From Antedon mediterranea (taxonomy: Eukaryota > Animalia > Echinodermata), in NCBI RefSeq assembly GCF_964355755.1, contig NC_092672.1, forward strand, positions 5,704,001 to 5,768,000: a stretch of DNA of 64,000 nucleotides. The letters are read 5' to 3'. Each line of letters starts with the position of its first letter. Positions within the stretch are counted from its first letter, which is position 1. Both the position numbers and the translations under genes were made by a program. Below, piece after piece: positions 35,501-38,500 of this stretch. Under the pieces are notes generated by a model. The model was not told the origin of the DNA and did not search any database. It saw only the letters and a program-made list of their open reading frames with translations.

Positions 35501-38500
35501 TGCAAACGATTTCTGTTGAGCCGTCTGTGTAGTCGAGTGGATAAGATTATGGACTTTACATGTCGATGTATGGGGTTCGACTCCAATGAGCTACTTCTTT
35601 TACTTTATAGTGAGAGAGATTATTTAGAGGGTTAGGTTTAGTTATATTTAGGAAGTAGTTTGGCTATATCTTTCACATAGGGTCCCCTACTTATGTAGGG
35701 AAAAAAAAATCGCCGCCTGGATAGGGGTTGGTGGTAGTGAAATATGTATTTCCTCTCGTTCATTTCACAGACAAGTGTCCCCTTAATGGGGTGGGGTGTT
35801 CCTGAGTAGGGGTGTCTTAAAGGAGGGGTTCTACTATAGAATAAAGCACATAGAATACACAACATGCAAATAGGATTTCACTAGGATATTGAATAGTATT
35901 ACAATCACGCTATGGTACTGTACAAAACATGCAAACATTACTTTCAATACACTAATACCACATATAGTGCTACAGCATTTCATAAACAATTCTATTCTGT
36001 AAACATTTAACCACAATGACAACACCACCGAAGCAGGGAATATATAATGAGGGGGTATATACAAGTAACATTTAAGGGTGCAAGCACACATTTCAGCGAT
36101 TCGGGACTTACTGCTGAGGCGACTGATTTTTCGCCATCACTCTGCCACTCCAACCTGTTTGGAAACAAGTAGTAATATCCCTTTGACCAGGTGTTTATAT
36201 AACCACCCAACCGTAGCAGATGTCCGTGAATAATCGTGTCCTTTCCGCGGGCATAGTCTGAGAAAGTAAGCAAGCATGGCAAGCATTAAAAACAGAGTTC
36301 GTGTTTTTTTTTTATTTTACAAGCATACTTACTGCGGACGTTTTGTTCCTATCGTTGTCGCCCTGCCATTCTAGTCTATTAGGGAATAGGAAGAAATAAC
36401 GACGCTGCCATGAATTCAGAAATTGTCCGCCCAATTTAGATAATTGACCGTGTAGGAGGCAATCTTTTCCTTCTGCGTATTCTGTTTTTTAGAAAAGGAA
36501 AACTTGTTATTTTAAGTTTACACATTATTCCCACGAATCTTGAGATGTCGTCTGATTGATTTTTGTATATTATCTGTGAAAAAAAATCTGACAAAAACTT
36601 TTCTTCTACCTTGAAACAGAATAATAAAAGGTGCGCACACAAAACATTTTATAGTGTACTCTCATATACTTTTTCTTTCTTTGCTCTAGAGACCACATGA
36701 TTTAGTAATAAAATACTAATTAACATATTTGTATAAATCCATCTTTTTGGTAAAAGATGAAGTAAAAATTACTTTGACTTCAGTTTTTATATTTTATTTG
36801 CATATGTAAAATATGAATTAGCATATATTTAAATATTACGTGTATAATGTACATACCCCCTTCATCCATCTTCTTGGCCTTTTTCTTGGCTTCTGCTCTG
36901 TCTGCATCATTATTTATTGTTTCAAACACAGTCTCTGCAATTTCTTGCTGCCATCTTTCTGAGATTGTAATTGGAAAATTCTTGTAAAGTTCCTGATCTG
37001 AATCGGTAAGCTGTAATCAAAAGAATAATTTTAATATATTTATCTGCTTTGTTGAACATCATCAAGTACGCAATTAGACTCCAAGGTGGATAATTTTTGT
37101 ATTGGATTATTTAAGAACATGAAGTTGGCATTGGCATTGCCTCTCTTTTGTTTCATGAGAAAGTATCGCCTTAATAAAATTGTATTAGTTCACACCTAAA
37201 CCAGATAGCTCAAGTCTAATTCAGTGATGTAGCCAAAAAAAATAAAGTGGTGCGGTTTTTGCAAGATAAGGGAACAATCTCTGTTCCAGCCACTGGGTTG
37301 TCAAAGGCGTCTGTGGTCAGGTTTGTTGAAACACTCAATCAACAGTACTACTTTTTACTTTTTTTTTTACTGGTGGCTACTACTATTACTACTGTATATA
37401 CACAGTTAGTACAGTCTTTAAGTGGAGATTATCTGAACTATTATTTTATGTCATTTTTATAACAATATATTCAGTAATGGTTTTTATTTTAAACCTACAG
37501 TTATTCAAAAATGACTATTAAATAATGACATTAAACCGAAAGTGTTCAACTAGTTTCTTATACACTCACGTATAATCTCTTATATTAACCAAGTAATTTG
37601 TTTCCAATTTGTATTAAAAACATGTACGGGGGTGTGGAATTTTTAAAGTTCAAAGGGCCGCCAAAACAAATAAGAAATACATTATGTTGGCTTGAAAACG
37701 AATGACTTTTGACGGCTGTTGCACAGTAGCAGAAGTGTCACAAAGCATGTGGGATATGTTTCAAACCCTTGTGTGAAAACATACAGCATGTCATTAATTT
37801 GTGTGTCAATTTCAATTACTTGGTGATAATGGAAAAGAGTACAGCAGACGTGAATGGATAAGCCACGACAGCCAGTAATACATGCATATAGGGGGAACGT
37901 TATTCAAGGACAAATTGAGCATATTGTACATTTTGGATATTTTTCCCTAAGCCTCCCACCCCGACCGACAGTTCAGTGAAAACTAAACTCCAGTTGTTTC
38001 ATTTTAAAACACAAATTATTAAATATTTCATAATTTAGAAGGGATAATAAATCGGGAGAACATGAACTCATTTGTTTTATATTGATATACTATATGACAT
38101 ATTTTTCTTTTAATATTCATAAGGCGCATTCAGCTGGGCGCTTATGAGCTCCTGCTAGCTACGAAAATTGTTGCTTGAAAAACTCAGAGAGCGTGTGTGT
38201 AAATACTGTGAGTATATAGAGCTCTACTAGTGTAAACAGAGCTTAATTAGAGTAAAGCTCTGTCTACATTAGCAAACTATGAAAAATGTGATGTGCCCAA
38301 TATGATATGTCATTGTGTCCATATATAGGCATCACATTGTTTTGTCACATAAAGTTTGATAGTGTAGACAGAGCTTTAGGAGTAAGTTTGATTTCTTACT
38401 TTGATTCCTTTGACGTCTTCTTCATCGAATGATCCAATGTCAAATGCATCAGCTGCATTAACTTCACCACGTGGTGGCACAAGTGGTGGTGTGTACTAAA

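Follow-up and report, generated by a model that had tools for sequence, protein, structure and literature searches.

A tandem pair of PH-domain exons in a GRK2/3 gene of the crinoid Antedon mediterranea, a putative splicing switch of phosphoinositide binding

Introduction

GRK2/3 kinases set the speed of GPCR signal shut-off, and their recruitment is taught as the joint sensing of Gβγ and anionic lipid by one PH domain. The closest described relatives of the gene reported here form the GRK2/3 (beta-ARK) subfamily (human and bovine GRK2, GRK3 and C. elegans GRK-2), which has the same RH, kinase and C-terminal PH domains. In the accessible parts of the functional literature, K567 and R578 are the GRK2 residues for anionic lipid and R587 is the residue for Gβγ (PMC9699688, PMC5638609); P571, F572, T574 and Q577 are listed for loop 1 or phosphoinositide, and P585, R587 and E589 as Gβγ contacts (PMC6823287). 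In the accessible text of two GRK reviews, no members other than GRK4 and GRK6 in one, and GRK4 in the other, are given splice variants, and the available portion of a study of GRK evolution (PMC3307776) describes conserved intron positions and mentions no exon of the kind reported below.

Mutually exclusive exons have been catalogued in human (PMC5740500) and in C. elegans (PMC4165533). According to the available portions of these catalogues, 60% of the human clusters have lengths not divisible by three and 9% have a short donor-to-branch distance, and UGCAUG occurs in the flanking introns of 11 of the 29 worm clusters. The names GRK and ADRBK are absent from the accessible text and 10 accessible supplementary files of the human study, as is grk from that of the worm study. 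Splicing within a PH domain is known from the cytohesins (ARNO, Grp1 and CYTH1), where a diglycine/triglycine switch is produced by a 3-nt microexon.

Results

Gene identity and domain layout

The gene is a GRK2/3 orthologue of A. mediterranea, 74-81% identical to deuterostome GRK2/3 proteins over the alignment. A query with one of its two alternative PH exons, exon B, returned a single protein among two candidates, at 100% identity: G protein-coupled receptor kinase 3-like isoform X2 of Antedon mediterranea, 690 aa (hereafter P0001), which is a predicted model in the NCBI annotation. Predicted isoforms such as X2 usually rest on transcript alignments. Residues 168-690 of P0001 map exactly onto 15 exons of the window (the whole stretch of 64,000 nucleotides analyzed here), with B spliced to 36857 and 33193, whereas residues 1-167 have no match within the 64-kb window. 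The Pfam domains of P0001 are RGS (54-174), Pkinase (192-450) and PH (554-647), the GRK2/3-type combination of RH, kinase and C-terminal PH, and the top PDB matches are GRK2/3. The original prediction had labeled the gene GRK2; the subfamily is right, but GRK2 as opposed to GRK3 is not, the gene being an invertebrate GRK2/3 orthologue. The following features make up the gene and its alternative segment.

27549..62775, minus strand: part of the GRK2/3 gene within the window, residues 168-690 of P0001, 15 exons used plus exon A
36857..37010, minus strand: constitutive upstream exon, residues 495-545 of P0001 (exact match), phase 1 donor GTATGT
36333..36481, minus strand: alternative exon A, 149 nt, PH strands β1-β3, ungapped to GRK2 553-595 (E 3e-17); keeps K567, W576, Q577, R578, R579 and R587 (GRK2 numbering)
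36258..36332, minus strand: intron between A and B, 75 nt; the best YTNAY match puts the branch A at nt 47 (36286), a consensus prediction
36112..36257, minus strand: alternative exon B, 146 nt, residues 546-594 of P0001 (100%); R567, K578, G579, R587 kept, loop one residue shorter
33080..33193, minus strand: constitutive downstream exon, residues 595-632, PH strands β4-β7, phase 0 in, single copy by tblastn of the window
32412..32565, minus strand: PH C-terminal helix exon, residues 633-684

Two C-termini are possible, either by read-through (32401-32412) to a stop just past a weak donor (GTCACT) or by splicing to a tiny last exon (27549-27568) as in X2, and AATAAA/ATTAAA signals lie downstream of both. 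P0001 is without three residues (VSE) that are present in other echinoderm and hemichordate kinases at the junction 55781/50095; a pattern search of that 5.7-kb intron for a VSE microexon gave no match. Other introns of the gene hold broken reverse-transcriptase/endonuclease (LINE-like) frames (56790-59560, minus strand), judged by eye from translations, and a strongly strand-skewed 27-nt minisatellite of about 43 copies (41966-43175). The neighboring gene on the plus strand (4700-20200) has 20 or more single-EGF exons, among which are several near-identical copies of recent origin.

Architecture and reading frame of the exon pair

Exons A and B are each preceded by CAG and followed by GTAAGT, have GCA as their last three bases, and share one open frame of phase 1 in and phase 0 out. 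The prediction of two homologous open exons with strong splice sites and identical phases, 75 nt apart, was reproduced when sites, frames and spacing were recomputed. The pyrimidine tract is shorter at the A acceptor than at the B acceptor (8 vs 12 of 14 positions), and the one in-frame cryptic AG within B (36240) is purine-flanked with a poor tract. The segment was originally taken for half of the PH domain; it does belong to this domain, but it comprises strands β1-β3, about 40% of it.

With the flanking exons attached by coordinates, the predicted product is 691 aa long for A alone and 690 aa for B alone. By contrast, inclusion of both exons stops translation at 615 aa (351 nt before the last junction), omission of both at 558 aa (227 nt before it), and A with the retained intron and B at 601 aa (468 nt before it); with the gene ending one exon earlier, the distance is still 197 nt for both exons and 73 nt for neither. 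Since all three arrangements end in premature stops, exactly one exon has to be used, as had been proposed. Both of the junctions anticipated for B, 36857 to 36257 and 36112 to 33193, are present in the annotated X2. Exon B is thus used in an annotated isoform, itself a predicted model, and A is presumably used in mRNA as well.

Selection on both copies

A and B are identical at 26 of 48 amino acids and 76 of 144 nucleotides. Their matches fall unevenly over the codon positions, with 29, 35 and 12 of 48 at the first, second and third position, respectively (64/96 at positions 1 and 2 together; Fisher P 3e-6 against position 3), and pS is saturated at a dN of 0.37. In a substitution-only neutral model, the joint pattern of an open frame, at least 26 identities and at most 16 of 48 third-position matches was obtained in none of the 40,000 runs made for each of five distances. 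The first and second codon positions are therefore kept while the third have diverged, which argues that both copies are old and selected. The codon pattern and the simulation bear out the earlier claim of selection on both exons despite their diverged DNA, and by this measure the duplication took place long ago and selection at the protein level has maintained both copies. We regard it as very probable that the exon pair is real and selected.

The 40-nt flanks of the exons are unrelated (13/40 and 11/40 matches), so that a haplotype duplicate was ruled out as the origin of the pair. Each exon shares 33 identities with the starfish protein P0002, and the end branches of the two in the tree are about equal in length (0.47 and 0.46). 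In this tree of 16 segments, a grouping of the two exons as sisters is neither supported nor rejected (p-AU 0.27).

Distribution in other animals

No B-type segment was found among the 119 other GRK2/3 proteins in a listing of 120 of 322 matches (14 from invertebrate deuterostomes and 105 vertebrate-type), a set that is clustered at 90% and hence hides isoforms differing only by this exon and may mask a B of other species. The same holds for the 150 representatives listed of 250 (E up to 0.001), among which B outscored A by a small margin for two non-GRK PH proteins and for none of the GRK segments. Proteins of 30-378 aa were searched with residues 535-610 of P0001, which gave 14 candidates, none of them significant. 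The metagenome scan with exon A yielded 405 pattern matches and 0 relatives. The scan with alignment A2 yielded 10 loci, with a second exon copy in 0 of the 10 and no second crinoid locus; six of these (L002, L005, L006, L008, L009 and L010) include the whole intron up to the next exon, the brittle-star-like L001, which is the only echinoderm-like locus, and L007 end within about 400 nt, and L003 and L004 are intronless. On these partial negatives, drawn from sets that hold no other crinoids, the exon pair is probably crinoid-restricted.

The junction that follows the A/B exon takes insertions of 5 to about 48 residues in proteins of Branchiostoma (P0010, P0013 and P0015) and Amphiura (P0009), and several GT donors stand in a row at the same junction in L001 (1140-1250). 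The β3-β4 loop looks like a splicing hotspot. The wider set of representatives also contains a distinct GRK2/3 PH type with Lys579 and His, Tyr or Phe at 580 (37 of 150, including P0194, P0240, P0251 and P0260-P0270), and a second type of 35 representatives that mostly have Thr at 578.

Candidate splicing control

The donor of A lies about 47 nt from the predicted branch point, and the published steric criterion, which comes from mammals, is a donor-to-branch distance below 50 nt (accessible text of PMC5740500). Among the introns examined, the shortest after this one is 207 nt long in the GRK2/3 gene and about 116 nt long in the neighboring EGF gene. Frame shift with decay would serve as a back-up, as it does in most worm clusters with exons that are not multiples of three (available part of PMC4165533). 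The region 33100-36900 was also searched for RNA docking structures and gave inverted repeats that are AT-rich and unremarkable; a hairpin of the A donor with the B pyrimidine tract has z of -2.26 or -0.84 depending on the bounds and is not claimed. Two groups of splicing-factor motifs flank exon B.

36269..36285, minus strand: four YGCY (UGC) motifs, candidate MBNL-type sites, between the predicted branch point and the B acceptor
33680..35933, minus strand: six TGCATG motifs (Rbfox-type) in the intron of 2918 nt that follows B, with start positions 35933, 35868, 35232, 35098, 33715 and 33685

The B acceptor has four YGCY in 43 nt vs none at 15 other acceptors (two windows of this comparison are offset by one base), and at least four occur in 0.08% of background windows. 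TGCATG is found six times after B against 0.57 expected (Poisson P 3e-5) and ranks 1 of 4096 hexamers, with one copy having been seen by eye before the count and a blind correction over 4096 hexamers bringing the value to about 0.19. The excess is strand-specific, with one copy on the other strand of this intron, and six are present in the 30,586 nt of the other introns.

In the accessible parts of the literature, exon inclusion is promoted by RBFOX bound to UGCAUG downstream and repressed by MBNL bound to YGCY upstream (PMC8488162, PMC7404189, PMC12149502); our search for literature on these position rules in sea urchin and amphioxus found none, and the rules are those of vertebrates. Together, the YGCY cluster and the TGCATG excess point to control of the Rbfox/MBNL type, and judging from these motifs the pair is fairly likely to be tissue-regulated by such factors. 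Muscle or nerve as the site of B is a guess by analogy with the vertebrate factors. The splicing-factor motifs and the cytohesin precedent go beyond the original prediction.

Protein changes on the lipid side and the Gβγ face

The original prediction had set SK..WQRR in A against LR..WSKG in B as a change of the lipid site. Of this contrast, the R579G replacement and the shorter loop stand, but a loss of charge at 567 and 578 does not, as B has Arg and Lys at these two positions, the ones changed in the documented double mutant; both are still basic, which weakens the earlier lipid case. Lys578 is found in 13 of the 119 homologues and is the usual state among invertebrate deuterostomes. The Leu of LR in B is likewise ordinary (112/119 homologues), and it is the Ser of A that is the odd one. 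In the core segment B has three basic residues vs four in A.

Five positions that are invariant in 119/119 homologues are altered in B, namely a one-residue deletion at 571-573, F572Y, Q577S, R579G and F581Y, all of them in the β1-β2 loop or β2; two such positions are altered in A (I560L and P571Q). By comparison of sequences, these five are the radical changes of exon B. Residue 579, which stands three positions after the Trp (Trp+3) on β2, is Arg in 119/119 GRK2/3 proteins and Gly in B. In the wider set, it is Arg in 89 and Lys in 56 of the 145/145 scorable segments, with 578 variable; five of the 150 representatives are without the anchor motif or enough upstream residues. The two sets, which give 264 counted segments, are not independent of each other. 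Residue 579 has reportedly also been tested by Carman et al. in 2000.

The Gβγ face was predicted to be unchanged, and F584, P585, R587 and E589 are indeed common to A and B; A differs most after the conserved LEW motif. An AlphaFold model of P0001 (β1 555-562, β2 569-576, β3 580-585) is of low confidence (mean pLDDT 52.5) and uninformative on the pocket, and a fold search with it returned only GRK2 and other kinases. A precedent for the lost basic residue comes from cytohesin-1. Its R280 occupies Trp+3, as read by eye from the mutagenesis primer, and the R280C change abolishes the binding of both IP3 and IP4, according to the available part of PMC6314551. The published lipid-site mutants of GRK2 are, in the accessible text, charge reversals and thus harsher than a loss; a lipid-site mutant retains Gαq-dependent desensitization (accessible part of PMC9699688), and D110 is present in P0001, so that the B isoform is predicted to keep this function. 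From these substitutions we lean towards weaker binding of the membrane lipid (phosphoinositide head group) by the B isoform.

Discussion

The reading that we somewhat prefer is that an old tandem duplication gave rise to two selected copies of the first PH-domain exon that are not usable together in frame, with B likely tissue-switched and conferring weaker phosphoinositide binding while the Gβγ face is kept. Under this scheme, joining of A to B would be hindered by the short donor-to-branch distance, and leak products containing both exons would be removed by nonsense-mediated decay. Exon A would be the default, and Rbfox bound downstream would favor B, which factors at the YGCY cluster may gate, most likely in muscle or nerve. 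In the protein, Gly579 would remove the basic residue at Trp+3, the position of R280C in cytohesin-1. The resulting isoform may depend more on Gβγ for membrane recruitment and phosphorylate receptors less efficiently, and would still sequester Gαq through the shared RH domain.

Two alternatives concern the status of the exons. It is very unlikely that B is a dead pseudoexon, or only a poison exon included with A to trigger decay: the lack of B-type sequence outside Antedon in the sets searched and the premature stop of the double inclusion agree with such a role, but third codon positions are saturated while frame, residues and splice sites are kept, a poison exon needs no protein-level selection, and isoform X2 uses B alone. 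The opposite case, in which the constitutive role has passed from A to B and A survives as a relic, would account for the only isoform found using B and for the shorter pyrimidine tract of the A acceptor. We consider it hardly credible, as A is open with intact sites, scores at least as high as B against all eight scorable outgroups (one of nine is out of range), and the regulatory motifs flank B and not A.

The remaining alternatives accept both exons and differ on what B does to the protein. As the main alternative to weaker head-group binding, B may shift lipid specificity and not strength, its shorter β1-β2 loop together with Arg567, Lys578 and Tyr572 favoring another phosphoinositide. The loop lengths parallel those of the cytohesin forms: with Grp1 (1fgy), B aligns 27:27 and A 28:27, whereas A aligns 28:28 with both 1u27 and 1u2b; we take 1fgy to be the diglycine form and 1u27 and 1u2b the triglycine form. 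A single glycine in the cytohesin loop changes IP4 affinity about 100-fold, according to the accessible part of PMC6314551. However, these cytohesin matches are weak (E 0.1-0.6) and the Arg at Trp+3, absent from B, is present in the two cytohesin forms alike, and we judge a change of specificity to be unlikely. Only a little more weight falls on the possibility that both exons are used and behave alike towards lipid, the copies having partitioned tissues or differing mainly in the β3-β4 loop and its partners. Positions 567 and 578 of B are still basic, the drift of A equals that of B and is greatest beyond LEW, and the same junction takes insertions in the Branchiostoma and Amphiura isoforms, all of which would suit it; the concentration of the altered invariant positions of B in the β1-β2 loop and β2, five in number against two in A, speaks against it. 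Weaker head-group binding with an intact Gβγ face is the reading that we retain.

A selected natural isoform without a basic residue that is kept in all 264 other segments offers a ready test of separating the two inputs to GRK2/3 recruitment and of the role of 579. The interest is limited by the ordinary splicing mechanism, by the presence of the B isoform in public annotation, and by the case being perhaps crinoid-only.

Comparison with known systems

Within the GRK2/3 subfamily, exon A is the ordinary member of the pair, aligning without gaps to GRK2 553-595, and the exon borders match those of the vertebrate-like locus L002. No tandem copy of the exon is present in the loci examined and no B-type exon in the 119 and 145 segments, whereas Antedon has both. 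A comparable isoform difference in the same domain was seen in the hemichordate Glandiceps talaboti, whose annotated GRK3-like isoforms X2 (P0014) and X4 (P0007) have homologous versions of a PH segment at residues about 598-640. The difference in Glandiceps affects the next exon (β4-β7), unlike β1-β3 in Antedon, and may represent an independent mutually exclusive pair; X2 and X4 also differ at residue 149, so that two genes or haplotypes are possible. We found no mutually exclusive PH exons of GRK2 in the literature, including work on splicing in Antedon, in the titles, abstracts and accessible texts and with thin coverage of subscription journals.

Cytohesin splicing, too, makes a one-residue difference to the β1-β2 loop of a PH domain, in roughly the same position. 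The cytohesin microexon keeps the Trp+3 Arg, whereas the Antedon pair swaps an exon of 48-49 codons with 22 other substitutions and loses that Arg; the relation is therefore at most one of working alike, and the Antedon pair is not a member of that system. The likeness to the mutually exclusive exons of the human (PMC5740500) and C. elegans (PMC4165533) catalogues is closer. Judged against their accessible parts, the Antedon exons are alike in being homologous neighbors, in their phases, in encoding one structural region (both align to GRK2 553-596), in having lengths that are no multiple of three, in the short predicted donor-to-branch distance and in the UGCAUG of a flanking intron, and differ only in gene and lineage. 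Within the reach of our searches, novelty lies in the gene, in the lineage and in the loss of the basic residue, and the architecture is that of an ordinary mutually exclusive pair.
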